Made by a program: the position numbers and the translations under genes. 64,000 nucleotides of DNA, taken from NCBI GenBank assembly GCA_051313645.2, contig JBNRSN020000001.1, positions 595,448,001-595,512,000 on the forward strand, in the 5' to 3' direction. The notes under the pieces are model-generated. The model did not search any database. It was not told the origin of the DNA and worked only from the letters and a program-made list of their open reading frames with translations. This DNA comes from Centroscyllium fabricii. Its lineage: Eukaryota. Shown piece by piece: positions 4,306 to 62,254 of the stretch; within the stretch, counting starts at the first letter, position 1; each line of letters begins with the position of its first letter.

Positions 4306-4997
4306 TCATAGAATCATAGAAGATAGGAGCAGGAGTAGGCCATTCAGCCCTTCGAGCCTGCTCCGCCATTCAATGAGATCATGGCTGATCTTTAGCAAGC
4401 TAGTACCCCGTCCCCGCCTTTTCTCCGTAACCTTTAATCCCTTTAGCTTGAAGAAATATATCCAATTCCCTCTTGAATATGTTTAATGAACTGGCCTCCA
4501 CCGCCCTCTGTGGCAAGGAATTCCACAGGCCCACCACTCTGAGTGAAGAAATTCTTCCTCATGTCTGTCCTAAATGGTTTACCCCTTATTCTTAGACCGT
4601 GGCCCCTGGTTCTAGACTCCCCCGCCATTGGAAACATTCTCTCTGAATCTAACCTGTCCAGACCTTTCAGAATTTTATACGTCTCAATGAGATCGCCTCT
4701 CAATCTTCTAAACTCCAACGAGTACAAGCCCAGACTACATAATCTCTCCTCGTAGGTCATTCCTGCCATTCCAGGAATCAGCCTGGTGAAACGCCGCTGC
4801 ACTCCCTCCATGGCAAGAACATCCTTCCTCAGGCGAGGCGACCAGAACTGTACACAATACTCGAGGTGTGGTCTCACCAGTGCCTTGTACAGCTGTAGTA
4901 AGGTATCCTTATTCCAATACTCGAACCCTCTTGATATGAAGGCCAACACACCATTTGCCTTCCTAACCGCCTGCTGCACCTGCATGCTCGCCTTCAC
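4306..4997 (-). mobile_element. CR1 LINE 3' fragment (young subfamily)
   Basis: ORF2 C-terminus [19 protein letters not shown], 3' hairpin and (ttctatga)n-type tail. Confidence 0.92.
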
Positions 4998-5910
4998 GAT
5001 TGGATGTATCCATTGAATTGTTTTTCCAAGTCGTTTATTATCTTAAGTAAAGCTTTTACTTCGTAGGCCTTAGCCTCCCACTAAAGCCAGGGTTAGTCCA
5101 GAGCTCTCTGACTGGTCATTAAATGCAGATTGTGCAGTCTGAGCATGTGCAGTTTGTCCAATTTCCCAGGCTGCTTTACACCATTTAGTCAGCTGAACAG
5201 TTGAATATTTTTCAGCAACTTCTAGCAGTTTTTGCTCAGTTGTTTTTCCAAAATTATTGGAAGAGAAGCCAGAGTTTGGGAGAGGGGAGAAGAGAAGGGT
5301 GTGAGACAGAAAAGGACGAGGAAAGACAGAGAGAGATACTGCAACACAAAGGGGTTAGGATTAAGGAGGAAGAGAAAGTTTAACAGAGAAACATAGAAGA
5401 TAGGAGCAGGAGTAGGCCATTCGGCCCTTCGAGCCTGCTCCGCCATTCAATTAGATTGTGACTGATCTTTCAGATTCAGTACCCTGTCCCTGCCTTCTCC
5501 CATATCGCTTGATCCCTTCAGCCTGAAGAAATATATCCAACTCCTTCTTGAATATATTTAATGAACCGGCTGATGCCTAATCAATAACTTCGGAGACTAG
5601 AAGTTGAGGAGTGAACTAAAGGCTTTTATTCACTAAGACATGAGCATGCCCATGCTAGTCGACTGATCCCAGAATGATTGGGGGAGGGAGACAGTCGCCT
5701 TTATACCTGGGTTCGAGGAGGAGGAGCCACAGGCAGGGTCAGCACGGGCATGCCCGGACAAGCTATACATGAAAGACTATGTACAAACAGTGCAGGTCAC
5801 ACACACAATGCATACAGATACAAACATGTATATATATATATATACACAGTGGTTTACCACATTCACCCCTTGTTTAAAATAAAGTCCGGCGGGGTAATGT
5901 TGGGCAACCA

Positions 5911-8767
5911 TCAAAGGTTCAGTCTCTCGGGCGGTTTGGTCTGCCTTGTAGAGCGGCGTACAGTTGGCGGTGGAGTCGTCGGCGGCGGAGGTGCTTGCTC
6001 CGACGCGGGGCCCCTTACGGTTACGGTCACTGGCGCGCTCTCCCACTCGTCGTCCGGCCGGCGGGTGCGTAGGTTTGGGGGCCATACCGTGCTGCCTGCA
6101 GGTGCTGGATGGGCGTACCGTGGTGCTGGTACCTCGAGGGGTATGATGTACCGTGGCGCTGGTGCCCCGAGGGTGGCGGTGGGGGGGTGGGGTGCGGGCT
6201 GGTGGGTCGTGGTGGTCTCGGGGGCACCCGAGGGTGCCAGGTCCTTGATGGACACCGTGTCCTCCCGCCCGTCAGGGTACGCCACGTAGGCGTACTGGGG
6301 GTTGGCGTGGAGGAGATGGACCCGTTCGACCAGGGGGTCCAACTTATGGCCCCACATGTGCTTCCGGAGCAGGACGGGTCCTGGGGACGATAGCCAAGAC
6401 GGCAGCGAGGTCCCTGAAGCCGACTTCCTGGGGAAGGCAAAAAGTCGCTCGTGAGGCCGTACAAAGGAGTGACCTAATGGAGTGGAGCACTTCGGGGAGG
6501 ACGTCCTGCCAGCGGGAGACTGGGAGGCACTTAGACCGCAGGGCTAATAGGGTGGCCTTCCAGACGGTGGCGTTCTCCCTCTCCACCTGTCCGTTCCCCC
6601 GGGGGTTATAGCTGGTAGTCCTGCTCGTGGCGATGCCCTTGGTGAGCAGAAACTGACGCAGCTCGTCACTCATAAAAGAGGCGCCCCGGTCGCTATGGAT
6701 GTAGCTGGGGTACCCGAACAGGGAAAAGATGCTGTGCAGTGCCCTAATGACCGTGGAGGATGTCATGTCTGGGCAGGGGATGGCGAAGGGGAAACGTGAG
6801 TACTCGTCAATGACATGGAGGAAGTACACGTTGCGGTTAGAGGAGGGGAGGGGCCTTTTAAAGTCGACGTTGAGTCGCTCAAAGGGGCGGGTGGCCTTGA
6901 TCAGGTGTGCCCGGTCCGGCCGAAAGAAGTGCGGCTTGCACTCTGCACAGACCCGGCAGTTCTTGGTCATGGTCCTGACCTCCTCGATGGAGTAAGGGAG
7001 GTTGCGGGACTTAATAAAATGGACGAACCTGGTGACCCCCGGGTGGCAGAGGTCGTTGTGCAGGGTCTGGAGACGGTCTACTTGTGCGCTGACACATGTA
7101 CCGTGGGACAGGGCATCTGGGGGCTCATTGAATTTCCCGGGCTGGTACAAGATATCGTAATTGAAAGCGGAGAGTTCGATTCTCCACCTCAATATCTTGT
7201 CGTTCTTGATTTTGCCCCGCTCTTTGTTGTTGAACATAAAAGCGACTGAGCGTTGGTCAGTCAGCAGGGTAAATCGTTTTCCGGCCAGGTAGTGCTTCCA
7301 GTGTCGCACTGCTTCAACAATGGCCTGGGCCTCCTTCTCAACGGAAGAGTGTCGGGTCTCGGGGCCCTGGAGGGTGCGCGAGAAGGCGGCCACGGGTCTG
7401 CCCGCCTGGTTAAGGGTGGCGGCCAGGGCGAAGTCGGACGCATCGCTCTCCACCTGGAACGGGATGGATTCGTCCACTGCGTGCATTGCGGCCTTTGCGA
7501 TGTCCTGTTTTATGCCGCTGAAGGCCATGCGGGCCTCTGCCGACAGGGGAAAAGAGGTCGATTTGATGAGTGGGCGAGCCTTGTCCGCGTAGTTTGGGAC
7601 CCACTGGGCATAATAGGAGAAGAAGCCCAGGCACCTTTTCAGGGCCTTGAGGCAGTGGGGGAAGGGGAGCTCCAGGAGGGGGCGCATGCGGTCCGGGTCG
7701 GGACCGATGACCCCATTCTCCACAACACAGCCGAGGATGGCGAGGCGGGTTGTCCTGAACACACATTTGTCCGTGTTATAGGTCAGGTTCAGGGTTTTGG
7801 CGGTGTGGAGAAATTTCTGGAGGTTGGTGTCGTGGTCCTGCTGATCGTGGCCACAGATGGTGACATTATCCAGATACAGGAAAGTGGCCCGCAGTCCGTA
7901 CTGATCCACCATTCGATCCATCTCCCATTGGAAGACCGAGACCCCGTTAGTGACACCAAATGGAACCCTAAGAAAGTGATAGAGGCGGCCGTCTGCCTCG
8001 AAGGCAGTATAGTGGCGGTCCTCTGGGCGAATGGGGAGCTGGTGATACGCAGATTTTAAATCGATGGTCGAGAAGACCCGATACTGCGCGATCTGGTTCA
8101 CCATGTCCGCTATGCGGGGGAGGGGATACACGTCCAGTTGCGTAAACCGATTAATGGTCTGACTGTAGTCAATGACCATTCGGTGCTTGGCTCCGGTATT
8201 TACAACCACTACCTGGGCCCTCCAGGGGCTATTACTAGCCTCGATGACCCCTTCCCTCAGGAGCCGTTTCACCTCCGACTTGATAAAGTCTCTGTCCCCA
8301 GTACTGTAGCGCCTTCTCTTGGTGGCGACGGGCTTGCAGTCCGGGGTGAGGTTGGCGAAGAGTGAGGGAGGGGCGATCTTAAGGGTCGAGAGGCCACAGG
8401 TAGCGCGCTGTGGGCATTGTACGGAGCGCTGATTGCTGACCGTGAGCGGGGGAAGGGGCCCACCGTACGCCATTCTCACGCTCTGGAGATGGCATTGGAA
8501 ATCAAGGCCCAGCAGTAGGGGAGCGCAGAGCTGCGGCAGCACGAATAGCTTAAAATTTTGGAAGTGTACACCCCGCACTGTCAGCGTCACTACGCAGCGA
8601 CCGCAGACGTCCGCTGATTCGGACCTCGAAGCCATAGAGATTTTTTGGCTTGCCGGTGTTACTCTTGGGGAGAAGCACTTTACCGTATCCGGGTGTACAA
8701 AGCTCGCCGTACTCCCGCTGTCGAAAAGGCAGTCCGTAGTTTGGCCATTCACCTGCACCGACATCAT
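5911..8767 (-). pseudogene. pol of Gypsy A (protease, RT, RNase H, integrase), one frameshift near 6450
   Basis: LFDSGS protease; IDLKSAYHQ and YLDN RT; ESDAS RNase H; HNDLCH...CRVC; DFK, SDRG and GQVER integrase. Confidence 0.92.
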
Positions 8768-8869
8768 TGACTTACTAAGCGGTTGACTCTTGTCTTGGTC
8801 GAGGGTGATTGAGGCCAGGATCAGGTCTGTCGGGTCGGTGGAGGGGTCTGGGGCTTGGTCCCAAGATGG

Positions 8870-9814
8870 CTACCCCCGCTGCCCCCACGCGGCGGGCTGT
8901 GTGGAAGATGGCTGTGTCCAAGATGGCGCGGCTGGCTGTGTCCAAGATGGCGCGGGCGGCCACGCGGCAGGCTGTGTGCAAGATGACGCTGCCAGCTGTG
9001 TCCAAGATCGCGGCCCCCACGGGCCACACGCGGCGCTGCCGGGTTTGGGGGTCGATTGCGCTGCCGCTCTGCATACCTTGGCGTAGTATCCCTTCTTCCC
9101 GCACTTTGAACAGGTCGCGTCCCTTGCTGGGCAATTCCGTCTGGGGTGCTGGGCCTGGCCGCAGAAATAACATTTCGGGCCTTTCGAGGTTGTCGCCGCG
9201 GTCAGCTCGTCCACGGGTCACGATGCGGCCGGCTGTGTCCAAGATGGCGGTGTCCGCGATGTGCCCGCGTGGTCAGAGTTGTTGGCGGCCATATTGTGGG
9301 ACGCCAGGTCCAGTGAGTTCGCAAGCTCTACCGTCGCCTGCCGGTCCAGGCCATCCTTCTCCAACAGTCTCTGCCTGATATAGTCTGACCTGAGGCCGGC
9401 GACGTAGGCGTCCCTGATGAGATTTTCAGCGTGCACAACGGCCGTCTGTGCTCTACAATTGCAGGCCCGGCAGAGGACTCTCAGCGCTCGCAGGAACTCC
9501 ACGCTCGATTCCCCGGGTTGCTGCTTTCGGGTGGCCAGAAGGTGTCTGGCGTAGACCACGTTAGATGCCCGGGTGTATTCGCCCTTCAAGATTCTGACCG
9601 CCTCGGTGCAGGACGTAGCGTCCGCGATGATCGAGTACACCTGAGGGCCCACCCGGGCGTTGAGGAGGCGCAGTTTGTCCCTGTCCACCTGGACGATCGC
9701 GGCGGAGGCTTCGAGGTACGCCTCAAAGCAGGAGAACCAGTGCGTAAATGTGTTAGCGGCACCTGGCGCTTGGGGATCTAGTTCTAACGTCGCAGGTTTC
9801 AGCATTTGCTCCAT
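8870..9814 (-). pseudogene. gag of Gypsy A (frameshifted near 9215), two zinc knuckles
   Basis: ORFs 9218..9814 and 8870..9214; CYFCGQAQHPRRNC and CSKCGKKGYYAKVC. Confidence 0.85.
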
Positions 9815-10086
9815 GATGCAAACTTAGTGAATAAAATTGATGCCTAATCAATAACTTAGGAGACTAGAAGTTGAGGAGTGAACTAAAGGCTTTTATTCAC
9901 TAAGACATGAGCATGCCCATGCTAGTCGACTGATCCCAGAATGATTGGGGGAGGGAGACAGTCGCCTTTATACCTGGGTCCGAGGAGGAGGAGCCACAGG
10001 TGGGGTCAGCACGGGCATGCCCGGACAAGCTATACATGAAAGACTATGTACAAACAGTGGAGGTCACACACACAATGCATACAGAT

Positions 10087-10127
<41 letters not shown>

Positions 10128-11710
10128 GTGGTTTACCACACCGCCCTCTGTGGCAGAGAATTCCACAGGTTCACCACTCTCTGGGTGAAGAAATTCCCCC
10201 TCATCTCAGTCCTAAATGGTTTTCCCCTTATCCTTAGACTATGGCTCCTGGTTCTGGACTCCCTGACCATCGGAAACATCCTTCCTGTAGCCAGTCTGTC
10301 CAGGCCTGAGAGAATTTTATAGGTTTCGATGAGATCCCCTCTAAATCGTCTGAACTCCAGCGAGTATAAGCCCAATAGAATCAATCTCTCCCCATACGTC
10401 ATTCCTGTCATCCCAGGTATCAGCCTGGTGAATCTTCGCTGCACTCCTTCAATGGCAAGAACGTCCTTCTTCAGATGAGGCGACCAAAACTGCACACAAT
10501 ACTCGAGGTGTGGTCTTCACTAAGGTCCTGTAGAGCTGCAGCAAGACATCCTTGTTCTTATATTCGAACCCTCTTGCTACGAAGGCCAACATAACATTTG
10601 CCTTCTTAACCACCTGTTGCATCTGCATGCTTACCTTCAGTGACTGGTGCACAAGAACACCCAGGTCTCTTTGCACTTCCCCATCTCCCAATCTATTGCC
10701 ATTCAAATAATAATCTGCCCTCCTGTTTTTGCCACCAAAGTGGATAACCTCACATTTTTCCACATTATAGTGCATTTGCCATGTATCTGCCCAATCCCCC
10801 AATCTGTCCAAATCGCATTGGAGTTTCTTGACATCCTCCTCACAGCATACCCTCCCACCCAGCTTTGTGTCATCTGCAAATTTGGAGATATTACATCCAA
10901 TTCCCTCGTCCAGATCATTAATATATATTGTGGACAGCTGGGGTCCTAGGACCGATCCTTGCGGTACCCCACTAGTCACTGCCTGCCACTCGGAAAACGA
11001 CCCGTTTATTCCAACTCTCTGTTTTCTATCTGCCAACCAGTTCTCTATCCAAGTCAATACCTTGCCCCCAATCCCATGAGCCTTAATTTTGCATGCTAAT
11101 CTTTTATGAGGGACCTTATCGAAAGCTTTCTGAAAGTCCAAATACACAACGTCCACTGGTTCTCCCCTATCTATTTTACCAGTCACATCCTCAAAAACTT
11201 TCAGTAGATTAGTCAAGCACGATTTGCCTTTTGTAAATCCATGTTGACTCTGTCCGATCCCGTCACTGTTTTTCAAGTGTACTGCTATTACATCTTTAAT
11301 AATGGACTTTTCCCCACTACCGATGTCAGGCTTACTGGTCTATAATTGCCTGCTTTTTCTCTACCCCCTTTTTTAAATAGTGGCCTTTCTACTCCCACCA
11401 TCTACATACAGCTCAAAAGTCTTTGGAAAAGTCATTACCCAACCCTTTGGTGAACTGTTGTACTGACAGATGTTGTTCCATCTCTGAAATAATGAAATTA
11501 GTGTTTGCAAGAGCTAGCGGAGAGAGTTCATTCCAACAGCAGTTAAGGCCACAGGGAACAAGAGGTGAGGGTACGAAGAGCAACAGGCAATGTAGTGACT
11601 GCAATCAGTATCTGCTATCATTTAATCCATTGAATACAAACTGCCCCTTCCAATGAAGTGTATTTCTATCACAACATTTGTTGAGACAATTCTAAGCTAG
11701 AAGCAAAGCA

Positions 11711-11993: not shown

Positions 11994-12209
11994 TAATGAT
12001 CTAAACCAAGGAACATTCCTAGATTAACAAGTTAAATTATTGCAAACTGTCTCTATGTTTTATGTTTACACTGAATCTTACTTTAACATTCAGAGGGTTA
12101 CAAGAGAAAAGAGCACCAAGCCTGTCACAGAACTAGGGTCCAAACTTATCGCACAAGGGCAAATCATACTAAAATTAATGGTAGTAATGAAAATATTTAG
12201 TGGTCTTAC

Positions 12210-12786
12210 CTCAAGCCTCTGTACTATTTCCCTGATGTCATCTGCACAGTTTTCCATAGCAGACAGCAGGATGCATTCTCCTCTTTCATAAAAGATCTTT
12301 ATGGTCATTAATCCAGAGGTCCAGCCAATCACATCCCTACACGAGCAATTAAACACTACATTTTTAGAGTCTTGCTCTACGAGCACAATGAATTCATTGG
12401 AGATTCCGAGAAGACATTCAATATCGTTAGATTGGCCAAAGTCCCGAGCAATAACATTCCACACAATAGCTCCAAAACTGAACAGTTGCGCATCCTTCCG
12501 GGGTTTCGTCTTCTCCTTCTTCTTTGCCCCAAGCGTGATGAAGCTGAATTTCACAGAAGAGTCGACTGTTGCCGTAGTTACAAAGTTTTCTGCCAAATCC
12601 TTCAAGTACTCCTGTCTTGTTCTGGTGGCCATTGCCCGGAACTTCTCAGATTTGTGTGCTGCATTTTCTGCATTGATAACTTTGGCAAGAAGAAAGTCCC
12701 TGAAAACCGCTGATTTGGGAAAGGTGACACCTTTGGGAATAGGTGGGCCAAATGGTGGCACATCTTTAGACCTGGAGACAGCCACG
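12210..12786 (-). CDS. SIPA1L2: SIPA1L2 internal coding exon (end of RapGAP domain and following region), 577 bp
   Basis: Translation [76 protein letters not shown]...[10 protein letters not shown] matches SIPA1L2 as recalled. Acceptor ctaat...ctctttgaacacatacAG (AG at 12788-12787); donor GTAAGA at 12209. Confidence 0.93.
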
Positions 12787-13973
12787 CTGTATGTGTTCAA
12801 AGAGACACCACAATTAGATTTGTAAGAACAACTTCAAACTATAGCAGGTACAATTTGACTGTTATATAAATGAGAGGACAGAAACAAATACAAATAATAA
12901 CATGATACCACATCTATGCACATCCAAGCCCTGGTCGGTAAGGCTCAGTAGAACACAGTATGTGTCCACTGGGCAATCGCCAAATTAATACTTTACAGGT
13001 TACCAATTCAAAAGCAAATTTAATTGGATCTGGAATTTTCCCATTGGTCTCAACATAATTCATTTTTCTGCTCAACATATCTCTTAAAGGATGTATCTTG
13101 GCTTTCAAACTCCATCTTCTCCTATATACTGTAGAGCTAAAATATTTCTGCAAATACAGGGTACCTTTCATTGCTATGTACAATCTACCTTTTGTTCTTT
13201 TACCCGTTTTAATACTCTCATTAGTTATCAATGGGTGTTTGCTTAAAATGACTGCCAGAGCCTTCAAGCTAAATTTGACCTCCTTATACAGCCATGGTGC
13301 TTAGTGTTGCTATTTTCCCCTTTTATTTTATTGGGATATACTTCCTTTCCTTCAATGCATCTTGGAAAAAAAATCAATTATTCTCCAGCTTTAATTTTCT
13401 TTTATTGTTTCTCACTTAATGCTCCCTAAAGCTGTTCTCACAACTATGCTCCATGTGGATGGGTTATTTTTGGCCTTAGCCTTTCATTACAATAACAAAC
13501 TTAACCATAAAATGATTACTATAACTGCAATTTTTATCCACTTGGAGGTCACTGGTCAGTTCTGTTAAGAGTCCAAGATTAACACTTCCTGTACAATTGC
13601 ATCAGCAGGTTACGATCTCCTGATCATTTTGAGAGGCTAACCAATAGCAAATTAATAATTGGCCAAATGCTAACTAAAATGACTAATTCCCAACAATCCT
13701 GCCCTGCCTCCTATATTATTAATATTCTATATACCTTAGGTTTCACTGCGTCTATTTTCTGCTGGCAGCCTAGTTTCACGACGTCACCAACAGCAAAGCA
13801 CGATGGGCACTGGGTTACCAAATTAACAGTGCAGAATGACAGGCACTCTTGTTGACGGGACCCTTGAGAAATGCTGGCATTTTTTATGTGAAATGTCACT
13901 GTAGTGGCAGCTACAGAACAGCTAGTTACTAAAAGAGAAACCAGTCTTCAAATTCATGCAGAGCCATGGTGGA

Positions 13974-14189: not shown

Positions 14190-17100
14190 TGTGGGGAACT
14201 GAAGGTTTCCCACTTTTAAATATCGAAGAATGAAAGGTAAACAGCGGAGTAAACTGGAACATGTCTTTATTCAACAACTACACGAACTAACTCTTTGTGG
14301 CGCGAAACGGCAGGAAACCACGTGACCCGTGAGTGACAGTGCTATGGGCCTATTAGGTTCCGTGCCCGTTGATTCTATGGGCCAATGTGGCAACGGGGGC
14401 GGGACCAACCTACCAAAGAGGATTCTGTCTTAAAGCGAGGTCGGCTGTCCCAGGCTACTGCCTTAAAGGGAGACAGGCGTGCCTCCCTGGGTAGTTACGC
14501 TATACACGCCCCCCCCAGAATCCTCAAACACGTTGTATGTTAACTGCCGAGGAGGGACGACGCGGCGACTGGAGCGGGTGTGGTAAGGCGCACGTGCGGA
14601 GGGCGAGACAAGAGGGTTGTCAACTGGACTGGGCGACCACGGTGCTGCAGGGGCCGGGGGAGGGGAGGCAGGCGGATCGCCCGCGGGACTGAAAGACGAT
14701 GGTGCCGTAGGTGCCCGAGGAGGCGAGGTTGGAGGCGAGGCGGGGAGAGGAGCCGCACCCGGGGGCGTGACAACTAAGGTGTCAACCGGGGGCTCGCGAA
14801 AGAAAAAGACGGGCTCCTGATTAGGAGCGGGGAAATGATGCTCCTGTGAGGTGGGGTCCAAATGAGCCGGTTTGAGGCGGTCAATGGACACACAGTCCTG
14901 CCGGCCCCCGACCTCAAGGAGAAAAAACTTGTCCCCAGCCTGCTAAACTCGAAAAGGGCCCGTGTACGGTGCCTGTAAAGGCGATCTGTGGGCGTCACGA
15001 CACAGAAAGACAAATTGAGCCCGGTGGAGCTCGGTGGGGACATGAGACGGTTGCGCGCCATGCCGAGAGGTAGGCAACAGGAGGAAACAAAGCGCTGCGT
15101 CATTGTGCTGGGCAAGTTGCTCCCTGGCGGACCAGTGTTCAGTGGTGGAGGGGAGAAATTCCCCAGGGATGCGTAGGGGCTGTCCAAAAACAAGTTCGGC
15201 AGACAAAGTGCCGAGGTCGTCTTTGGGGGGCCGAGCCCAGGCCAAGCAAGACCCAAGGGAGCCTGTCTAGCCAATTAGCATCGACCAGGCTAGCCCTGAG
15301 CGAGGCCTTGAGGGCGCGGTGAAAGCGTTCACAAATGCCGTTGGCCTGCGGGTGATATGCAGTGGTGCGGTGCACCTGTGTGCCCAAGTTGGTGGCCACG
15401 GCATTCCAGAGCTGGGAAGTGAATTGCGGGCCCCTGTCAGAAGTAATGTCCGACGGTACGCCGAACTGGGCTACCCAAGAGAAAATGAAGGCACTTGCCA
15501 CGTCGGCTGCCGTGGTGGAGGCTAAGGGGACAACCTCTGCCCACCTCGTAGTGCGGTCGCCGACCAAAGAAGATGGGTAAAACCCTGCGACGGGGGCAAT
15601 GGGCCGACCAGGTCCACGTGGACATGGTCGAAGCGCCGTTCAGGTACAGAAAAATCGTGCAAAGGGGCCTTAGTGTGTTTATGAACGTTGGCGCGCTGAC
15701 AGGCTTGACAAGTGTTGGTCCAGTCACGCACATTCTTGTGTAACCCGGGCCAAACAAATGTGGTTGACATGAGCTTCTGTGAAGCTCGCATACCAGGGTG
15801 TGAGAGACCGTGGACCAAGTCAAAAATGCGTCTACGCCAGGAGGCGGGTACTAAGGGCGTAGGTGTGGGCACGGACACGTGTCACAAAAGTGTGGTGCCT
15901 GCAGTGTGAAAATGGACATCAGCTAACTTGAGGCTGGTGGATGCGGAACGGAGAACTTGCAGATCCGCGTCCTGCCGCTGAACATGTGCCATTTCGGCGT
16001 AGTCGACGTGCACGTGCACTGCCTGTAGGGAAGGACGTGAGAGGCAGTCTGCCACGACATTGGCCTTGCCGGACACGTGGCGGATATCAGTGGTGAATTC
16101 TGACACGAAGTTTAAATGACGCTGTTGGCGTCCGGACCAAAGCTCTGCAACCTTGGACATCGCGCAAGTGAGGGGCTTATGGTCTACATAGGCTGTAAAA
16201 GGACGACCCAAAGCAGAAATGGCGCACAGCGAGAAAAAGAGCTAACAGTTCCCTGTCAAAGGTACTGTATGAGAGTTCATTTTTCCTCAACTGCCGGCTA
16301 AAAAAGGCTAGGGGCTGCCAACAACCGTCCACCCACTGCTGCTGAACTGCGCCAATTGCGTAATTGGAGGCATCCATTGTCAGTGATAGTGGGGCGTCAG
16401 GAACGGGGTGAACCAGTAAGGTGGCCTCCAACAGGGCCGCCTTAGCCAGGCAGAAAGCCTGAACCATGTCGGCGGACCACTGGAGAGGATCCTTCCCGGT
16501 CTTACCCCTAGTAGCCTCATAAAGGGGGCGCGCGATGGAGGCTGCCCGGGGAATAAACCTGTGGTAGAAATTAACCATCCCCAGGAATTCCTGGAGGGAC
16601 TTAACCACCTTAGGTTGGGGGAAATCCGCAACCGCCTGTACCTTGGAGCGCATGGGAGATATGGTGTCCCAGGAAATCGATTGTAGGGAGGCCGAATTGG
16701 CACTTGGTAGGTTTGACAATCAGGCCATGCTGGGCCAATCGTTGGAAGAGAGAGCGCAGGTGTAGCACATGTTGAGACTCGCTCGAGCTTGCAATTAAAA
16801 TATCGTCCAGGTATACAAACAAAAAATCTAAGTCTCTCAACACAGTGTCCATCAGTCGCTGAAAAGCTTGCGCTGCGTTCTTCAATCCAAAAGGCATGCG
16901 TAGAAACTCGTACAGTCCAAATGGTGTAATGACAGCGGTTTTTTGGACGTCATCAGGGTGGACGGGAACTTGGTGGTACCCTCGCACGAGGTCAACCTTG
17001 CAAAAAATGGTGGTGCCAGCCAAACGGGCCGAGAAATCCTGGATGTGGGGTACTGGGTACCTGTCCGGTGTGGTAGCCTCATTGAGGCGTTGATAGTCCC

Positions 17101-25769: not shown

Positions 25770-27950
25770 GGAAAACAGTGATAGGATCGGACAAAGCCAA
25801 CATAGATTTACAAAAATTAAATCGTGCTTGACTAATCTACTGGAATTTTTTGAGGATCATAGAATCATAGAAGATAGGAGCAGGAGTTGGCCATTCAGCC
25901 ATTCAATGAGATCATGGCTGATCTTTAGCAAGCTAGTACCCCGTCCCCGCCTTTTCTCCGTAACCTTTAATCCCTTTAGCTTGAAGAAATATATCCAATT
26001 CCCTCTTGAATATGTTTAATGAACTGGCCATTACTGCCCTCTGTGGCAAGGAATTCCACAGGCCCACCATTCTGAGTGAAGAAATTCTTCCTCATGTCTG
26101 TCCTAAATGGTTTACCCCTTATTCTTAGACCGTGGCCCCTGGTTCTGGACTCCCCCGCCATTGGAAACATTCTCTCTGAATCTAACCTGTCCAGACCTTT
26201 CAGAATTTTATACGTCTCAATGAGATCGCCTCTCAATCTTCTAAACTCCAACGAGTACAAGCCCAGACTACATAATCTCTCCTCGTAGGTCATTCCTGCC
26301 ATTCCAGGAATCAGCCTGGTGAAACGCCGCTGCACTCCCTCCATGGCAAGAACATCCTTCCTCAGGCGAGGCGACCAGAACTGTACACAATACTCGAGGT
26401 GTGGTCTCACCAGTTCCTTGTACAGCTGTAGTAAGGTATCCTTATTCCTATACTCGAACCCTCTTGATATGAAGGCCAACACACCATTTGCCTTCCTAAC
26501 CGCCTGCTGCACCTGCGTGCTCGCCTTCAGCGACTGGTGCACAAGAACACCCAGGTCTCTTTGCACCTCCCCATCTCCCAATCTATTGCCATTTAAGTAA
26601 TAATCTACCCTCCTGTTTTTGCCCCCAAAGTGGATAACCTCACATTTATCCACATTATAGTGCATCTGCCATCTATCTGCCCAGTCCCCCAACTTATCCA
26701 AATCGCCCTGTAACTTCCTGACACCCTCTTCAGAGGATGTAACTGGAAAAATAGATAAGGGAGAACCATTGGATGTGGTGTATTTGGACTTTCAGAAGGC
26801 TTTCGATAAGGTCCTGGATAAGAGATTAGCGTGTAAAGTTAAGGCACATAGGATTGGGAGCAAGGTACTGTATTGGATAGCGAACTGGTTGGCAGACAGG
26901 AAGCAAAGAATTGGAATAAACAGACCTTTTCAGAGTGGCAGGCAGTGACTAGTGGGGTACCGCAGGGATCGGTCCTAGGACCCCAGCTATTCACAATATA
27001 TATTAATGATCTAGACGAGGAAACTAGATGTAATATCTCCAAGTTTGCAGATGACACAAAGCTGGGTGGACGGGTGTGCTGTGAGGAGGATGCCGTAAAA
27101 CTCCAGTATGATTTGGACAGGTTGGGTGATTATGCTGCATCTGCCCAATGTGGATAAATGTGAGGTTATCCACTTTGGTGACAAAAACAGAAAGGCAGAT
27201 TATCTGAACGGCAATAGATTGGGAGAAGGGTAAGTGCAACGAGATCTGGGCATCCTTGTGCACCAGTCGCTGAAGGTAAGCATGCAGGTTAAGGCGGCAA
27301 ATAGTATGTTGGCCTTCGTAGCGAGAGGGCTTGAGTACAGAAACAAGGATGTCTTGCTGCAGTTGTACAGGGCCTTGGTGAGACCACACCTCGAGTACTG
27401 TGTGCAGTTTTGGTTGCCTTATCTGAGGAAGGATGCACTTGCCATGGAAGGAGTGCAGCGAAGATTCACCAGACTGATACCTGGGATGGCAGGAATGACG
27501 TATGAGGAGAGATTGGGTCGATTGGGCTTCTACTCGCTAGAGCTTAGAAGAATGAGAGGGGATCTCATCGAAACTTATAAAATTCTAATAGGACTAGACA
27601 GACTAGATGCAGGAAGGATGTTCCCGATGGTCGGGGAGTCCAAAACTAGGGGCCACAGTCTAAGGATAAGGGTTAAGCCATTTAGGACAGCGATGAGGAG
27701 GAATTTCTCCACCCAGAGAGTGGTGAACCTGTGGAATTCTCTACCACAGAAGGCAGTGGAGGCTAGTTCATTAAATATATTCAAGGAGGAGTTAGATATA
27801 TTTCTTAAGGCTAAAGGGATCAAGGGATATGGGGAAAAGACAGGGATAGGGTACTGAATTTGGATGATCAGCCATGATCTCATTGAATGGCAGGGCAGGC
27901 TCGAGGGGCCGAATGGCCTACTCCTGTTCCTATCTTCTATGTTTCTATGT
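25770..27950 (+). mobile_element. CR1 LINE fragment (RT to tail), host of the previous insertion
   Basis: SCLTNLLEFFED|VTGKID continuity across the insertion; tail tcttctatgtttctatg. Confidence 0.88.
25858..26732 (-). mobile_element. Young CR1 3' fragment inserted into a plus-strand CR1; TSD GAGGAT
   Basis: GAGGAT at 25852-25857 and 26733-26738; near-identical to 4306-4997. Confidence 0.92.
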
Positions 27951-28165: not shown

Positions 28166-29188
28166 CTTGCAGAGGAAGAGACTTGGAGAGGTCAGGTGAG
28201 AAACTCATTTCAGTGCATCTCACCTCTGCCCTGTAGCTAGAGTGTTGATATAGCTAATCCAGTTAAGATTTTGGACAATGTTGATGGTGGGAGACACTGC
28301 AATGGTGGTCCTGTTGAAGGTCGGAGCAGGGGGAGTGATTGAGCCTTTTCCTGTCGGAGATGGTCATTGCCCAGCATTTATCCAGCGTGAATGTTACCTG
28401 CCATTTGTCAATCTAAGCCCGAATGCTGTGTGTGTTCTGCTGTAGTTTGTCATGGGCTGTATCACTACAGGAAGAGTTATGAATGGTCACTGAACACAGA
28501 GTCAGCATACTGCTGATCGTATAACAGAGGTAAGGTTATGAAGGTAATGAAGCAGCTGAAGATCGTTGGGCTGATCTCATATCACTAATAAAAAGCCTGA
28601 AATTCAATGCAATATAAAGAAATGTAACCTATTCAATCTCCTCAGTCACAGGTAGTTATTGAGTGATGGTTTTCAGCTGTATGTTGTCTTTTGTGTGGTC
28701 AGCATTTTTAGAGCAGTCAGCGTTTCAGAGTTTTGTAGGTTGGCACTTGTTGGAAAGATACCCCTCATAAAAAGGAAGTATTTCGTAGAAAGACAACTTC
28801 TAGCACATATATCAATATCTACACATTGATTAGCATTTGCAACAGAACACTGAAGCAACTGAAGAACAGTCATAAACAATGAATGGGGATCTGTCAACTT
28901 CAGCCTTTTAAGCGATTAAGTGAGTGCTGTGGTAATCGTGTAAATACCACTGTAAATAGTTGATGGCACCTTGGTATTGTATTGTAGGCCAGGTCAGCCA
29001 CACCCCTAACTCCTCCCCTCAGGTCGGAGCATATAGGTGAGGGCTGCCCTGCTCCCGCTCATTCTTCATCTTGACCTCATCAGGAGACCAGCTCCATTGT
29101 TAGTTAATAAAAGCCTGTAGTTTAGGTAACTACTCGTCTTTGCATTTTAATTGACGATACGTCAATTTTATTAACTAAATTTTAAAAC

Positions 29189-32100
29189 ATGGAGAGTAAC
29201 GCAGTGAAACTGGATCGCCTCGACATAAATCCTCAGGCACCCGATGCTGCTAACGACTTCGAACACTGGTTTGGCCTGGTCGAGGCCTACATGAAGGCCA
29301 TAAAGGCTACGAGTGATGAGGACAAACTCCAGGTACTCTCATCACGGATCAGCGGCCGGGTGTACTCTTTTATCCGCAGCCTCAACACTTACGAGGAAGC
29401 GGCCAAGAAATTAAAGGACTGCTGCATGCGGCCGGCCCACTCGGTCTATGCCAGGCATGTTCTGGCGACCAGAAGACAACGACTCGGTGAGTCAAATGAA
29501 CAGTTTCTACTAGCGCTCCAAGCCCTCGCACGGGCCTGCGACTGCCATGCAAGGACAGCGGAGGAAGAGGCGAACCTCCTAATCAGAGATGCCTATGTGG
29601 CTGGACGCAGGTCCAGCCAGGCCCGCCAGCGGCTGCTGGAGCAGGACACACTGTCGCTTGAGTCCGCGATAACGCTTTCTAATGCGGTGGACGGAGCGCT
29701 TCGAAAGCTGGAGGCGGACGGAGATCACGGCTCCCACTGTACCCCTGACCCCTGGGCGACACAGCGACAGGCCGAGACCCCCATGATGGCAGCGGCAACT
29801 GCGAAGACACTGGCGGGGCACAGATGCTATTTCTGCGGCCAAGGAAAGCACCCGCGGGCGCACTGCCCTGCGAAGAATGCGACCTGCGCGTGGTGCGCGA
29901 AGAAGGGGCACTACGCGAAGGTGTGCAAATCCAGCCCAGCCTCCACCTCCAGACCCAACAGCGCGGCCTGCGAGAACAGCGATGCCACTCCCATCGCTCC
30001 AGGTACGGTGTTGCAGCGTGACCCAGCAGCGGTCAGCCGGGGGTAAATCGCGGGCGCCTCAAGCCCCTTTAATTGTACGGCGGAGGACGCCCGCGCGCGC
30101 GGCACAGGCGCTGCCACAATAAACGCGACCGCGACCGGCCATGTGCGACCCCCCGGCACCGCCATCTTGTCCACCGCGGTTGGCCGCGTGCGAACCACGG
30201 GCGCCGCCATCTTATCCACTGCGGTCGGCCATGTGCGACCCCCAGGCGCCGCCATCTTGTCCACCGCGGTCGGCTGCGTGCGAACCACGGGCACCGCCAC
30301 CTTATCCACAGCGGTCGGCCATGTGCGACCCCCCAGCGCCGCCATCTTGTCCGCCGCAGTCGGCTGTGTGCGAACCACGGGCGCCGCCATCTTATCCACA
30401 GCGGTCGGCCGCGTGCGAACCACGGGTGCCGCCATCTTATCCACAGTGGTCGGCCGCGTGCGAACCACGGGCGCTGCCATCTTGTCCACAGCAGCCGGAC
30501 ACGTGCGAATCGCCAGCGTCGCCATCTTCTGAGCGGCCATCTTGCCAACTGCCCCAGCCGGGGCCCCAGATAACGGAGGGCCCCCACTCACACTTCGGCC
30601 TCAGCCACCGTCGATCAGGCTAGGTCGCACACCTTGTCCAACTCCATGATGGGGATTAAGGTGGACGGGCACGCCACTAGCTGCCTGTTCGACACCGGTA
30701 GCACAGAGAGCTTCATACATCCCGACACAGTGCGGCGCTACGCACTGCAGACCCAGCCCACGCACTACCAAGTCTCCCTTGCCTCAAAGTCTCACACGGC
30801 GGACGTCACTGGCTACTGCAGCGTCACGCTCACGATCAGCGACCGCATTTACCGCAACTTTAAGTTGTACGTACTCCAGCAGCTGTGCGCCCCAGTCTTA
30901 CTGGGACTGGATTTCCAGTGTCAGCTGAAGAGCGTGACGATGGATTTCAGTGGAACCCTGGCCCCCCTCACCGTCAGTAGCCGGGACAATCGCAACTTAA
31001 CGCGGAGCTCAACTTGTGGCCTGTCCACATAAAAAGTCGACCCCCCCCTCACTGTTCGCCAATCTCGACCCTAAATGCAAGCCCATTGCTACCAAAAGTC
31101 GGCGTTACAGTGCAGGGGACCGGGCGTTCATCAGGTCGGAGGTCGAGCGCATGCTGAAAGAAGGGATCATTGAGGCCAGCACCAGCCCCTGATGGGCCCA
31201 GGTCGTAGTGGTTAAGACGGGTGAGAAACTGCGCATGGTCATCGACTATAGCCAGACGATTAACCGCTCCACCGGGCTCGATGCCTACCCCCTCCCCAGC
31301 ATCTCGGATATGGTAAACCAGATCGCCCAGTACAAGGTCTTTTCCACAATCGACCTCAAGTCGGCGTATCACCAACTCCCCATCCGGAAATCCGACCGCC
31401 AGTACACCGCCTTCGAGGCGAACGTCCGGCTCTACCACTTCCTCCGGGTCCCCTTCAGTGTGACCAACAGGGTGTCGGTGTTCTAGAGGGAGATGGACCA
31501 CATGGTTGACCAGAACGGGTTGCAGGCCACCTTCCCCATCTTGGACAACGTGACCATCTGCAGCCAGGACCAGCAGGACCACGATGCCAACCTCGCCAAA
31601 TTCCTGCACACGGCGAAACGGCTGGACCTAACGTACAATAAAGAGAAGTGTGTGTTTAGTACGGATCGGCTCGCTATCCTCGGATACGTGGTGGAAAACG
31701 GGGTCCTCGGCCCCGACCCACAGCGTATGCGCCCCTTGCAAGAGCTGCCTTTACCTCACAACCCCAAAGCCCTGAGGAGATGACTAGGGTTCTTTTCTTA
31801 TTATGCGCAATGGGTCCCCCAGTACGCGGATAAGGCCAGACCTCTCCTCAAGGCCGACGTCTTCCCCCTCTCGGAAGAAGCCCAAACAGCATTCGCTCGG
31901 ATCAAGGAAGACATCATCAAGGCGACCATGCACGCCGTTGATGAGTCCATTCCCTTCCAGGTGGAGAGTGACGCTTCGGACTTTGCCCTTGCCACCACCC
32001 TGAACCAAGCAGGCAGGCCCGTAACGTTTTTCTCCCGGACCAGACAGGGACCCGAAACTCGCCACTCAGCGGTGGAAAAGGAGGCCCAGGCCATTGTGGA

Positions 32101-33442
32101 GGCAGTGCGCTACTGGCGTCAGTACCTGGCCGATAAGCGTTTTACCCTGCTCACTGACCAACGGTCGGTGGCGTTTATGTTTAATAATAAACAACGGGGT
32201 AAGATCAAGAATGATAAGATCCTTCGGTGGCGGATCGAACTCTCGACTTACGAGTACGACATTCTTTACCGCCCAGGCAAGCTCAACGAACCCCCGGACG
32301 CACTGTTCAGGGGAACGTGCACCAGCGCCCAGCTTGACCGGCTGAAGGCCCTCCACGATCGCCTCTGCCACCCGGGTGTCACCAGACTCGCCCACTTCGT
32401 CAAATCCCGTAGCCTCCCCATCTCCATCACGGAGATAAAGGCTATGACCAAAGAGTGCCCTGTCTGTGCCGAGTGCAAACCCCAATTCTACAGGCCAGAC
32501 ACGGCGCACGTCATCAAGGCCACCCGCCCCTTTGAACGCCTGAGCGTGGACTTCAAAGGCCCCCTCCCCTCCACTGACCGCAACTCGTATTTCCTTACGG
32601 TCATAGACGAGTTCTCACGCTTCCCCTTTGCCTTCCCCTGCCCAGACATGACGAGCGCAACGGTGATCAAACACTTCACCACGCTGTTCGCCATTTTCGG
32701 TCTCCCCAGCTACATCCATAGCGACCGGGGATCGTCGTTCATGAGCGACGAACTGCGTCAGTTCCTGCTTCAGAAAGGGGTTGCCTCAAGCAGAACGACC
32801 AGTTACAACCCCCGGGGGAACGGCCAGGTAGAAAGGGAGAACGGGACCATCTGGAAGGCGGTCAACCTGGGCCTGAAGTCCAGAAGCCTTCCAGTTTCCT
32901 GTTGGCAGGAGGTCCTCCCAGACGTGCTCCATGCCATCCGCTCTCTGTTGTGTGCCGCCACTAACTCAACACCTCATGACCTGTTGTTTTCCTTTCCCAG
33001 GAAGTCGACTTCGGGGACAGCACTCCCGCTGTGGCTCACAGCGCAGGGGCCAGTATTGCTTAGAAAGCACATCCGCAGCCACAAGACCGACCCCCTGGTG
33101 GAACGGGTGCACCTGCTCCACGCCAACCCGCAATATGCTTACGTGGCATTCCCGGACGGGCGCGAGGATACAGTCTCGATCAGGGACCTGGAGCCCGCTG
33201 GGAGCACTAGGGCAGAACCCCCGGTCGAGCCTCAGCCCGACCAGCCACCACCCACCGAATACTGGCCCCCATATATACACACACCGGGGCCCTCAACACC
33301 ACCGATCGATGACCCGGGATCGGACACCGCACCGCTGGCAAAGAGCTCGATCCCGGCCCTGCAACCGGCACCACCATTGCCGGCACCCCGGCGGTCCCCC
33401 AGGCAGACGCGACCGCCAGAGAGGCTAATAACGCAATGCTAA
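29189..33442 (+). pseudogene. gag-pol of Gypsy C, several nonsense mutations
   Basis: LFDTGS, IDLKSAYHQ, ILDN, ESDAS, HDRLCH..CPVC, DFKGP and SDRG motifs. Stops near 31030, 31190, 31484 and 31781. Confidence 0.9.
30134..30545 (+). repeat. 45-bp tandem array (about 9 units, partly alternating as a 90-bp unit) between gag and protease of Gypsy C
   Basis: GCCATCTT recurs at 30161, 30206, 30251, (30296), 30341, 30386, 30431, 30476 and 30521. Confidence 0.92.
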
Positions 33443-35547
33443 TTGTTAATGGACATAGAGATTTTTTTTCACCAGAAGGCACGTTCACCCCACCGGACTT
33501 GTTTTTAAAGAAGGGGTGAATATGGTAATTGTGTAAATACCACTGTAAATAGTTGATGGCACCTTGGTATTGTATTGTAGGCCAGGTCAGCCACACCCTT
33601 AACTCCTCCCCTCAGGTCGGAGCATATAGGTGAGTGCTGCCCTGCCCCTGCTCATTCTTCGCCTTGAACTCATCAGGAGACCAGCTCCATTGTTAGTTAA
33701 TAAAAGCCTATAGTTTAGGTAACTACTCGTCTTTGCGTTTTAATTGACGATACGTCAAGTGCACTCTGTGTCTTCTAACATTATATTCTCGTTACTTCTG
33801 GCATCCAGGAAATGGTTTACTCTAATATTTCCCGAATTTATAACTAAAATTAAATCATCTGGAAGGCAAACCATCTTTGAAATTGATCATTTAGATGCAG
33901 CACAAGTTAAATGGAAATGTATCAAGTGAACTATAAAAACAGTTTAGATACCATCCAAAGATTAATTTTTTCAGCCTTTGAGGCAGAGTGGTAGATTGAC
34001 CACTTCCTGCTAGTGCTGTACTCTATCTGAATGGGCTTGGAGGATTCGAGAGATGTAATCTTATGGGAGAAAACTGGTTCTATCAGCTTATCACAGCTAA
34101 GTACTGGTTATGAATTTGGCAAGATCTACAACCCATTGCCAACAGCCCACCCTTGTTATAAGCACTCATTCATTGCACTATTGCTGTTGCAGTAATTTGG
34201 GGTCTTGGCTTATGACCTTTCCAAGTTCATAGCTCTCAAATACTGTTCAATCAAGCATTATGCTAGAGTATGGATACACAGCAATAATGGTGCAGTTTTG
34301 CTAAATAAATTCATACCGTTTCATAACTAATTTTAATTCTATTAATTTGCATAACCATCTGCAGCCTAGTGCTCCTGAGGAATGCTCAGGTGCACTGAGT
34401 GGTGTCTGAGCTAGACTGACAGTGAAGTTGTCCCTGTGCAGATAGAGTTTTATAGCATTCCTTCTCTGATATCGTACAGCCCATTTAGGTTTGATGCTTG
34501 GTTATCAGACAATCACTGGTACATAAAAGTGCTTGACTACCAAGGATCATAAAATTATGACCCGACAGATTTCCAGAACTTGCAGTTCTTAATGGATGGG
34601 CAGAGATATTCTTCATATTTTATCGTTCCTAATTTTGCATGGGGTCTGTACCTTCCACACTTGTCCCCTGGTACATGCTGCATTTTCCTCCTGTGAGGGA
34701 ATGAATCTCCCTCTAACTGCTCCACCACTGAAGCCCCTAGCTAATTTTCCATTGCAATATTTGACTGTGGATGTAAATGAACAAAACTGAGAATTTCGTT
34801 TAAGATTTGCAAAAGCAGTGCAATTTGGGAACTGCGTGCTATTTTTACACTGCTAAGTACAGCAAACCTGTTATTTCACATGTATGCAAGTTCTTCACAT
34901 CCACTTGGTTTAGTTAAAATGAGCCATATGTTATAAATACAGCCTCGAATTTGCGCTTTTTTCCCCCAACTAAAGCAATTGTAGAACAGCTTACTCTTGC
35001 CCATTATACCGATGGAAATTATTTTGGGTGGGGAAAGAGATGGTTTCAATTAAGCTTTACTGAACTTAATGGTGAACATTGGGATACAATAGTTTGCATG
35101 CCAACAATTTAGCAGAGTTTTACCCCAGCACGATGAGATCATTTATTTATTTATACCATTACCCATGTCCTTGTGTTTTCTCTACCTGTAGTGAACATAC
35201 ACCAGACCGTTTCACTGAAACGTTGACTTGTCTTTTCTCTTTACAGGTTCTAATTGTCTTGCTCAGTATTTAATACATTTGTTGCTTTTGTTCCAGACCT
35301 CTAGCATTTGCAGTAATTTAATTTATTTATGATCCATGAGACAGACCCTTAAACATATCTCCTGTGTTGATGTCGCAGGATCTTATTCTTGTAGTACCTT
35401 CTCATGCTCCACTTTACCTCAAGTGTTGTTCTGTACCTTCTTCCAACTCTGGATTTAAGACCAACCGTCCACATTGACATAAGAACACAAGAATTAGGAG
35501 CAGACCAGTCCATACAGCCCCTCGAGCTGCTCCGCCATTCAATAAGA

Positions 35548-45750: not shown

Positions 45751-47093
45751 TCTCCTTTGCAATAAAGCTGGCAACTGCGTGTAAAACTGGCTTCTCAGAT
45801 TCTACAAGAGGTGCAGTTTTTACATACATTGCCGATACAGGGTTTGAAAGTAGAAGATGTTGGATGGGCGATTTTGCTCAGAGATGGATGATGGTTAGAG
45901 TTGGGCTTTACTTTTCTTCCCATGGTCGATCATCTTCCTATGTCCACCAGTGGAAATATTGAAACCTATTTTACAAAATGAGATATTGTTGGCAGGCTGA
46001 TACCTGGGATGGCAGGAATGATGTATGAGGAGAGATTGAGTCGATTGGGCTTCTACTCCCTGGAGTTTAGAAGAAGGAGAGGGGATCTCATTGAAACTTA
46101 TAAAATTCTAACAAGACTGGACAGACTAGATGCAGGACGGACGTCCAGAACCAGGGGTCACAGTCTAAGGATAAGGGGTAAGCCATTAGGCCATTCGGCC
46201 CCTTGAGGCTGCTCCGCCATTCAATGAGATCATGGCTGATCATCCAAACTCAGTACCCTGTTCCTGCCTTCTCCCCATATCCCTTGATCCCTTTAGCCTT
46301 AAGAAATTTATCCAACTCCTTCTTGAATATATTTAATGAATTGGCTTCAACTGCCTTTTGTGGTAGAGAATTCCACAGGTTCACCACTCTCTGGGTGAAG
46401 AAATTCCTCCTCATCTCGGTCCTAAACTCAGTACCCAGTCCCTGCCTTCTCCCCATATCCCTTTAGCCTTAAGAAACACATCTAACTTGTTCTTGAATAT
46501 ATTTAATGAACTGGCCTCAACTGCCTTCTGTGGTAGAGAATTCCACAGGTTCACCATTCTCTGCGTTAAGAAATTCCTCCTCATCTCGGTCCTAAAGGGC
46601 GGCACGGTGGCATAGTGGTTAGCACTGTTGCCTTACAGCGCTAGAGACCCGGGTTCAAATCCGGCCTCGGGTGACTATCTGTGTGGAGTTTGCACATTCT
46701 CCCCGTGTCTGCGTGGGTTTCCTCCGGGTGCTCCGGTTTCCTCCCACAGTCCAAAGATGTGCGGGTTAGGTTGATTAGCCATGATAAATTGACCCTTAGT
46801 GTTAGGGGGATTGAATATGTGGGGTTACGGGGATAGGGTGGGATATGTGTCGGTGCAGGCTCGGTAGGGATCGAGGGATATCGGGACAAGGCAGGGACAG
46901 TGTGCTGAGTTTGGATGATCAGCCATGATCTTGGTGAAACGCTTACAAAAGTATATTTAATTTTATTTATTTATTTATTTAAGAGAGTGTAAGTTAAAAA
47001 TAAATTAAATTTATTCAGTTGAACTTATTTAGTAGAAAAACAGGAAGTTGAAGCACGATTTAAAAAGGGGCGGGGCTTAGTGCGGCGTGCACG

Positions 47094-47373
47094 GAGTGCG
47101 GAGGGCATAGAGTGCTAACGAGAGTGCGGAGGGCATAGAGTGCTAACGAGAGTGCGGAGGGCATAGAGTGCTAACGAGAGTGCGGAGGGCATAGAGTGCT
47201 AACGAGAGTGCGGAGGGCATAGAGTGCTAACGAGAGTGCGGAGGGCATAGAGTGCTAACGAGAGTGCGGCGGGCATAGAGTGCTAACGAGAGTGCGGAGG
47301 GCATAGAGTGCTAACGAGAGTGCGGAGGGCATAGAGTGCTAACGAGAGTGCGGAGGGCATAGAGTGCTAACGA
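47094..47373 (+). repeat. 10 x 28-bp tandem repeat in the CR1 5' UTR
   Basis: Unit GAGTGCGGAGGGCATAGAGTGCTAACGA; only one variant base (47270). Confidence 0.95.
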
Positions 47374-47667
47374 GAGTTTGGTTAGTGGGAGAGTTCGGGC
47401 AAGTGGGAGGTGAGGGGGGTGCTTCTCTGTCTTTGCTTCTGTCCCAACTCTTAGGTTCGGCTAGCGCCGCAGAAGAGGAGCGGCAGGGAAATTGGAAGAA
47501 GGTTGGTAATCAGCTTGTTGGTAAGTACTCTTGCTTCCCTTTTACTCTTTATACCTCATAGGTGGAAAATGCTCTTAAATAGAGTGATATTTAGCTATAT
47601 TGGGGCAAAGGTTTTTTTTTTTCCCTTTTGCGTAGCTAATAATAATAAGTATAATTAAATATATAGA

Positions 47668-61633: not shown

Positions 61634-62254
61634 GTACATTGCAGGAAGTCCAGAAAAGGATGAAGAAACTAGATCAGCAATACAAAGAAAGAATAAGAAA
61701 TGCAGAGCTTTTTCTGCAACTGGAGACAGAGCAAGTGGAATGGAATTATATTAAAGAGAAAAAGGGCAGCAGTGAAGGAATTTGAAGATAAAAAGATTGA
61801 GTTTAAAAAAAACCTGATTGCCGAATTAGAAGAGAAGAAAAAGATGATTGAGAATGAGAGACTAACAATGGAACTCACTGGAGATTCTATGGAGGTGAAG
61901 CCAATTATGACCAGGAAGTTGAGGAGGAGACCTAATGATCCCGTTCCAATTCCAGACAAAAGACAAAAACCTGCACCTGCGCAGCTAAATTACTTGTTAA
62001 CAGAGGAACAGATTATGGAGGATCTGCGAACTTTTAATAACCTCAAATCTCCAAAAACACCAGCATTTCCTTCTTCTCCTGAGCATCCTCCCAGCACGCC
62101 AGCTGAATCGCCAGCACAGAGATATGAAGCACGATTAGAAGATGGAAAGTTGTATTATGATAAGAGATGGTATCACAAAAGTCAGGCTACCAATCTGGAA
62201 TCCAAGGAGAATACGAAGATCAGCTGTGTAATTAGCTCAGTTGGAACAAATGAG
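61634..62254 (+). pseudogene. SUDS3: Processed (intronless) SUDS3 fragment, +1 frameshift in the A-run near 61760
   Basis: [36 protein letters not shown]...[10 protein letters not shown]...[32 protein letters not shown]...[17 protein letters not shown]...[11 protein letters not shown]. Confidence 0.9.

Follow-up and report, generated by a model that had tools for sequence, protein, structure and literature searches.

Asn in place of the third catalytic Asp is an inherited and probably functional state of the reverse transcriptase in a clade of Ty3/Gypsy elements represented in the genome of Centroscyllium fabricii

The window analysed here, a stretch of 64,000 nucleotides from a genome of 7.2 Gb, is rich in LINEs that we take to be CR1-like and contains three Gypsy elements: element A on the minus strand (10140-5571), element B on the same strand (about 18826-14189) and element C on the plus strand (28928-33757). 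Element A is flanked by LTRs with TG...CA ends, the 5′ LTR at 9838-10140 and the 3′ LTR at 5571-5861 (both minus strand), which are identical at 284 of 291 positions, and by the 5-bp target-site duplication (TSD) GGCGG/GCCGG. Its gag frame (9218-9823, minus strand) is cut off by an in-frame stop ahead of the zinc knuckle. The ORF list and Pfam placed protease, RT, RNase H and integrase in a pol open frame of 841 amino acids (6344-8869, minus strand), with the integrase tail continuing in another frame (5911-6543, minus strand), and a purine-rich tract (5862-5875, minus strand) adjoins the 3′ LTR. The gag stop and the frame change in the integrase tail mark A as a decayed copy. The closest named relatives of its RT are found in rays and sharks, at 80-84% identity. 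Element C has LTRs at 28928-29164 and 33521-33757 (plus strand; 226 of 236 positions identical) between the TSD copies AGTGC at 28923-28927 and AGTGC at 33758-33762; it carries the purine tract as well, and its gag-pol region (29186-33442, plus strand) contains several stops and frameshifts. The paired LTRs and TSDs of A and C, already recorded in a preliminary description of the window, were thus recovered. The domain order protease-RT-RNase H-integrase (Pfam) and the combination of TG...CA-ended paired LTRs with a 4-6-bp TSD are those of Ty3/Gypsy elements, and no env frame was seen in these elements. Element B, whose LTRs lie at about 18826-18510 and 14505-14189 (minus strand), is a Gypsy element of another lineage and was used for comparison only.

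The sequence surrounding these elements holds several further features. Element A (5571-10140) is inserted in a CR1-like fragment, the halves of which lie on both sides of it. A 45-bp tandem array with 8 overlapping matches separates gag and protease in C (30083-30577, plus strand), and A has shorter, related GCCATCTTG repeats at the matching position (about 8880-9010, minus strand); the repeats of the two elements would form an expandable linker. A piece of a Rap/ran-GAP domain lies in frame at 12090-12833 (minus strand), with A and B on either side in the same orientation. We presume this frame to be an exon of a SIPA1-like gene, and A and B probably sit in introns. Further along, a frame of 294 amino acids (61697-62581, plus strand) combines an Sds3-like part (weak, E 0.004) with an SDA1 C-terminal domain (E 2e-12) and may represent a chimeric retrocopy derived from two mRNAs of the host. 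A near-complete CR1-like LINE at 47659-51611 (plus strand), comprising a GDSL esterase frame, an endonuclease and an RT frame of 804 amino acids, is preceded by a 28-bp tandem array (47038-47429). Two CR1-like fragments 21.5 kb apart (4570-4869 and 26103-26402) are 100% identical over 300 bp, which would be consistent with a recent duplication, conversion or young insertions.

Motif C of the RT reads YLDN in element A (7865-7876, minus strand; TAT CTG GAT AAT), with the first Asp encoded at 7870-7868 and the Asn at 7867-7865, and ILDN in element C (31538-31549, plus strand; ATC TTG GAC AAC). Reverse transcriptases as a whole are described as sharing a triad of three aspartates. The YLDN box departs from the canonical YxDD, which is usual across RT groups and does not set Gypsy apart, while the other two Asp are invariant; the catalytic Asp of motif A (8060-8062, minus strand; D87 of the fragment 8320-7205) is kept in each of the 248 clade rows. 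The box of A aligns column for column with the YLDD of Ty3 RT (4OL8, E 7.6e-35, the best of 20 solved structures), so that the Asn occupies the third catalytic position, that of D214 in Ty3 and D211 in Ty1. An AlphaFold model (pLDDT 79, pTM 0.60) displayed the expected strand-turn-strand at the motif, a result that speaks to the fold only and not to side-chain geometry. The preliminary description had reported xLDN in both elements, followed directly by VTIC and with different Asn codons (AAT in A, AAC in C), and the sequence bears this out, except that the "x" overstates the variation: 27 of 30 C-type copies carry YLDN, and the Ile is private to the window copy. It was likewise right in placing the change in A outside a CpG context, the Asn codon being preceded by T in A and by C in C, and in noting that element B keeps YLDD (16802-16813, minus strand). 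As a control B is weak, because it belongs to another Gypsy lineage and has no self-complementary site of the kind described below.

To count the states of the motif in the whole genome, we used the exact pattern P-Y-L-x-x-[VI]-T-I-C-G with the middle two residues varied. YLDN was matched 214,286 times and YLDD 296 times, the latter being rarer than either of two control A-to-G point mutants, YLDS (464) and YLGN (822), even though YLGN destroys an essential Asp. Asn is therefore the family state. The figure for YLDN is a lower bound, since a looser pattern lacking the Pro was applied to D only; that pattern yielded 159 more D matches, mostly from one small YLDD family within the clade that has 52-56% RT identity to A (near-full-length matches). 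Thirty YLDD copies fetched from the genome were dispersed over many subfamilies, requiring 14 changes on a 117-row tree (shuffles 21-30), with some of them clustering where the N sample was thin. These close D copies are at the level of mutation background, and nothing points to a D-bearing helper of close relationship. Sampling of copies gave the same picture. The 30 best matches to the RT stretch of A, a search that favours N, were all YLDN, and those to the RT stretch of C, the window copy included, had D-N in 30 of 30 (27 YLDN, ILDN in the window copy only, and two with alignment gaps in the first two motif codons). Thirty copies picked by RNase H alone, hence blind to the motif, again included the window's own copy; one was without the motif region, and the 29 readable copies all had D-N (27 YLDN, 1 YFDN and 1 HLDN). 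A YLDD family consensus, which had been named beforehand as the result that would speak for independent changes after insertion, is thus not what the genome holds, as evidenced by the 29 of 29 motif-blind copies and the ratio of 214,286 to 296. The motif of A and C is real and inherited, and is due neither to chance nor to decay. At about 4.7 kb per copy, the number of matches suggests that YLDN elements make up some 0.7-1 Gb of the genome.

To examine how the two states are distributed among relatives, the results of three homolog searches and of a 50% representative search were pooled into 440 proteins, of which 425 cover the motif. Homologs of an N query (n=120) comprised 101 DN, 18 DD and 1 other, and a D query added 78 proteins, of which 40 were DN, 37 DD and one without motif coverage. 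Within the clade delimited at ≥36% identity, the 425 include 196 DN, 129 DD and 3 other sequences; below 36% identity there are 96 DD, no DN and 1 gap. Since none of the 96 relatives outside it is DN, N is confined in this sample to one Ty3/Gypsy clade. At close range the state is uniform, D in 40 of 40 and N in 63 of 64 cases within 90% clusters (196 listed members, 104 with the motif). No relative was found in the viral contigs searched, and the ESM Atlas returned generic Gypsy pol clusters only.

For the reconstruction of switching, trees were built without rows that covered fewer than 290 residues, had a pair other than DN or DD, or fell below 36% identity, apart from 10-12 outgroups. A minimum of 23 D/N changes was required on a FastTree tree of 259 rows built with the D/N column masked (shuffles 66-84) and of 27 on a 329-row tree, while a quick 57-row tree, whose rows were chosen to include switch pairs, gave 18. 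On that 259-row tree neither the Asp of motif A nor the first Asp of motif C underwent any change, the latter being constant in 249 rows. The inferred root state on the 259-row tree is D. Parsimony assigned 11-15 gains of N and 8-12 reversions to the 259 rows, and 9-11 gains and 16-18 reversions to the 329 rows, so that the proportion of the two varies with the tree used (9-15 gains and 8-18 reversions overall); models permitting change in one direction only needed 40-41 steps in the former and 43 or 55 in the latter. As a check that requires no tree, both states were present together in 7 of the 133 clusters formed at 75% identity. Natural D/N pairs share 77-87% identity in RT-RNase H. Overall, D and N are the only states of the site, which has switched in both directions, at least 23-27 times in the clade. 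The idea of a single lineage trait is too simple, because the site toggles, albeit only between D and N. The earlier proposal that saw in Asn a lineage trait of elements that did transpose is supported, the residue being the inherited family state and the RT being under purifying selection; N is not, however, one fixed event.

A and C are decayed copies from a very abundant Ty3/Gypsy clade that inherited the Asn, and we consider it likely that the RT of this clade is fully functional on two catalytic carboxylates. The two invariant Asp, in motif A and at the first position of motif C, would bind the metals, whereas at the third position the shape of Asx or a hydrogen bond would be enough, without the charge, for a role in primer positioning or pyrophosphate release. 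Yeast mutants provide a precedent. According to PMC2148107, Ty1 D211N keeps polymerase activity in vitro with kpol down 223-fold, has an altered Mn/Mg preference and a pyrophosphorolysis lowered about 320-fold, and blocks transposition, which RNase H suppressors rescue to 5-10%; the preliminary description had correctly stated that the D-to-N mutant of Ty1 polymerises and yet fails to transpose. In Ty3 (PMC5371799), the D214N enzyme is active with reduced processivity, the mutation is lethal in vivo, and D151 and D213 alone were judged essential for Mg binding. Of the three Asp the third is thus the least essential, in keeping with a clade that does without its charge.

Clade-wide changes would have rendered D and N nearly equivalent, in a manner that may be likened to the RNase H suppressors that partly rescue Ty1 D211N. 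The candidates are the Gly-Val of motif B (7940-7945, minus strand, in A; PFGVTNGV), the Thr two residues past the D/N site (7859-7861, minus strand, in A) and the TDQ of RNase H. These are common to D and N core members and rare outside, where other Gypsy elements mostly have N-A-P instead of N-G-V in motif B and TDH instead of TDQ. Motif B has N-G in 190 of the 196 rows with N and in 92 of the 129 with D, and the Thr is present in 92-94% of the core clade in both states as against 24% of basal rows; the exceptions among the 196 N rows are 6 without the motif B Gly and 19 without the Thr. No column co-varied with D/N after multiple testing (best p 0.016, 546 tests, 23 pairs), and the independent-pair test for the Thr was not significant. 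The named compensators are therefore clade-level correlates only. The lack of columns that track the switches fits a standing permissive background, without naming its members.

That Asn is adaptive, tuning rate, metal preference or pyrophosphorolysis to the host so that switches track host conditions, seems to us unlikely. In its favor, N families are about a thousand times as numerous in this genome as its one small D family, and the named hosts differ: N is recorded in sharks, rays and cnidarians (Scyliorhinus, Hypanus, Mobula, Narcine, and several corals and anemones), and D in hosts that include nematodes (Trichuris), an isopod (Armadillidium), two insect genera (Ischnura and Cydia), a sea cucumber (Apostichopus) and a tunicate (Clavelina). 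The changes in Mn/Mg preference and pyrophosphorolysis of Ty1 D211N (PMC2148107) are also properties on which such tuning could act. However, D and N coexist in one genome, reversions are about as frequent as gains, and a host is named for only a minority of the relatives.

A second property of the elements is their primer site. In A the primer-site position, one base past the LTR (9823-9836, minus strand), is the perfect 14-nt complement of an LTR arm at 9891-9904 (minus strand), a candidate self-primer that contains AATAAA followed by GCCT; this site was intact in 29 of 30 copies. The complementarity search also found, in C, a 13-nt arm with AATAAA (29100-29112, plus strand) pairing perfectly with the primer-site position at 29166-29178 (plus strand), which has a compensatory change relative to A. 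The site starts with ATTT and differs wholesale between families; judged from its letters, it is not of the tRNA type. Outside this genome, 80 metagenome loci were considered, of which 50 had a gag match and 43 were testable. Pairing was present in 28 of the 43, compared with 1 of 300 control positions, and divided by state as 24 of 34 DN, 4 of 7 DD and 0 of 2 other loci, many of the DN loci being copies of few families and one positive being off-register. The letters of the arm change wholesale while its register is fixed, in that the arm nearly always ends at the point between AAA and RCC, where a second helix is usually stacked. Several arm variants occur among the subfamilies of this genome, with pairing kept in 10 of 14. 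AATAAA is present in 8 of 22 arms and the variant ATTAAA in several more. A local hairpin at the LTR end is clear in C and not general, and among 60 copies of A and C no concerted changes of arm and primer site were seen within families. In a single case, loci L100 and L102 of one family show a matched change in the LTR arm and the primer site, as expected if the primer were copied into the progeny site. A separate observation concerns six copies of the small YLDD family (L281, L282, L285, L289, L297 and L298), in which sequence beginning with GG(G/C)CC interrupts the primer site near the same base. It may stem from a different element that targets the site; the sample was biased by the query.

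A fixed end beside the LTR boundary is what a primer requires, and it leads to a self-priming reading, as described for Tf1 (PMC7175516). Throughout the clade, in D and N members equally, the minus strand is likely primed on the element's own RNA: an LTR segment of 11-19 nt would pair with the site one base past the LTR, and a cut at the conserved helix junction between AAA and RCC would give the self-primer its 3′ end. Because AATAAA occurs in the arm in those 8 of 22 examples, masking of a 5′ poly(A) signal stays a rival or added role, and the pairing could serve it instead of, or beside, priming.

The Asn could be mechanistically tied to this tRNA-independent self-priming, which we regard as very improbable. 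All sampled N elements do fall within the clade that has the self-complementary site, and the site could be one permissive condition. Yet the D-bearing loci L117, L120, L156, L160 and L162 have the site in the same register, and the small YLDD family of this genome keeps it in 18 of 25 LTR matches (6 interrupted, 1 partial). The co-occurrence of Asn with a non-tRNA primer site, put forward in the preliminary description as a link, does not survive these counts or those of the loci with a gag start, and a strict coupling is largely refuted already. Since D-bearing families share it, the site is older than N and not tied to it.

Restoration of Asp after the fact, by A-to-I editing of the RNA or deamidation of the protein, would leave an ordinary working enzyme; a single A-to-G gives an Asp codon, and only D and N are tolerated at the site. 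We rate this, too, as highly unlikely. Edited RNA would be copied into DNA, and YLDD is nevertheless rarer than the A-to-G mutants counted above. As for deamidation, it is slow when Asn precedes Val or Ile, which is a matter of general protein chemistry.

The suggestion that N elements have a crippled RT and were moved in trans by D-bearing helpers can be given hardly any weight, although this genome does hold the small YLDD family, which belongs to the clade and could be cast in that role. The RT of the N lineages is under strong purifying selection, comparisons among N subfamilies giving a dN/dS of 0.05-0.07. Comparison of the A family with the C family shows saturation at synonymous sites (pS 0.77-0.79) at a pN of 0.11-0.12, and the nearest-copy dN/dS of 0.13-0.19 is biased by how copies were picked. 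The D family is moreover distant and about thousandfold rarer, and close D copies are at the mutation background. In a set of 20 YLDN copies drawn from the top of the list for one contig (C1), 14 had repeat pairs, 13 of which were genuine LTRs, 93-99% identical, and nine of the 20 had a TSD; identical LTRs were seen in none of the 13 dated copies of this genome. Relatives with N from metagenome assemblies have TSDs and show 99-100% identity between their LTRs. As the RT of the N lineages has long been under selection and has no abundant D partner, the simplest reading is that N elements are autonomous and would be moved by their own RT. Finally, independent post-insertion G-to-A decay, to which the decayed state of both window copies and the CpG context of the C codon might point, can be dismissed, being refuted by the 214,286 versus 296 matches, the 29 of 29 motif-blind copies and the constancy of the neighboring Asp in 249 rows.

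A broader account is, in our estimation, evenly balanced between right and wrong. It would have an old Gypsy clade that spans phyla rebuild its RT to two carboxylates at no cost and flip the third Asp dozens of times, with YxDN enzymes having written roughly a tenth of this genome; the clade would self-prime by an internal cut at the helix junction beside a poly(A)-like hexamer, a mechanism with an origin independent of Tf1. The role of the third Asp, be it metal binding, primer positioning or pyrophosphate release, has so far been argued from crippled mutants. The question becomes directly testable because the clade supplies natural, selected Asn enzymes together with D/N pairs that are 77-87% identical. 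In addition, YxDN is no proof of a dead RT, and motif filters would drop one of the largest repeat families of this genome. The result is surprising for RT specialists, yet its chemistry was foreshadowed by the yeast mutants.

Taken together, the elements represent a variant of the Ty3/Gypsy RT that is real, inherited and probably functional. They resemble Ty3/Gypsy elements (Metaviridae) in their TG...CA LTRs, 5-bp TSD, purine tract and protease-RT-RNase H-integrase order, and differ in having YxDN for YxDD in 196 of 328 clade members and in the lack of a TGG-type tRNA primer site. The RT groups apart from the Tf1/Tf2 type, the Tf2-labelled P0633 and P0634 being distant YMDD rows with 28-29% identity in RT-RNase H. 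Many Tf1/sushi members carry a chromodomain at the end of the integrase, and a domain-family search found none in the integrase tail of A or C. Their primer site is, as here, complementary to the element's own LTR RNA, but the self-primer described in PMC7175516 consists of the 11 nt at the start of the transcript and is freed by RNase H; the arm here lies ~25-80 nt before the LTR end and, in A, apparently some 40 nt past a candidate TATA/initiator. The Copia Conserved Hairpin Site of GalEa is also a structured RNA in place of a tRNA primer site; it differs in being that of a fungal Copia element, downstream of the LTR, for which PMC5445492 reports that no LTR complement was found. The Cigr-1 clade comprises animal Gypsy elements from a tunicate, molluscs and annelids, and the present clade has a tunicate member (P0605); the comparison is by description only, the available portions of PMC6238403 and PMC8556966 giving neither motif nor primer site. 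We found no description of a natural YxDN RT in the literature searched, the scope of which excluded most subscription journals, Repbase and GyDB. The nearest counterparts are Ty1 D211N (PMC2148107) and Ty3 D214N (PMC5371799), which have the same substitution at the same residue and keep polymerase activity in vitro. Those mutants were made in the laboratory and do not transpose, whereas the Asn enzymes described here are natural, selected and present in >200,000 copies.
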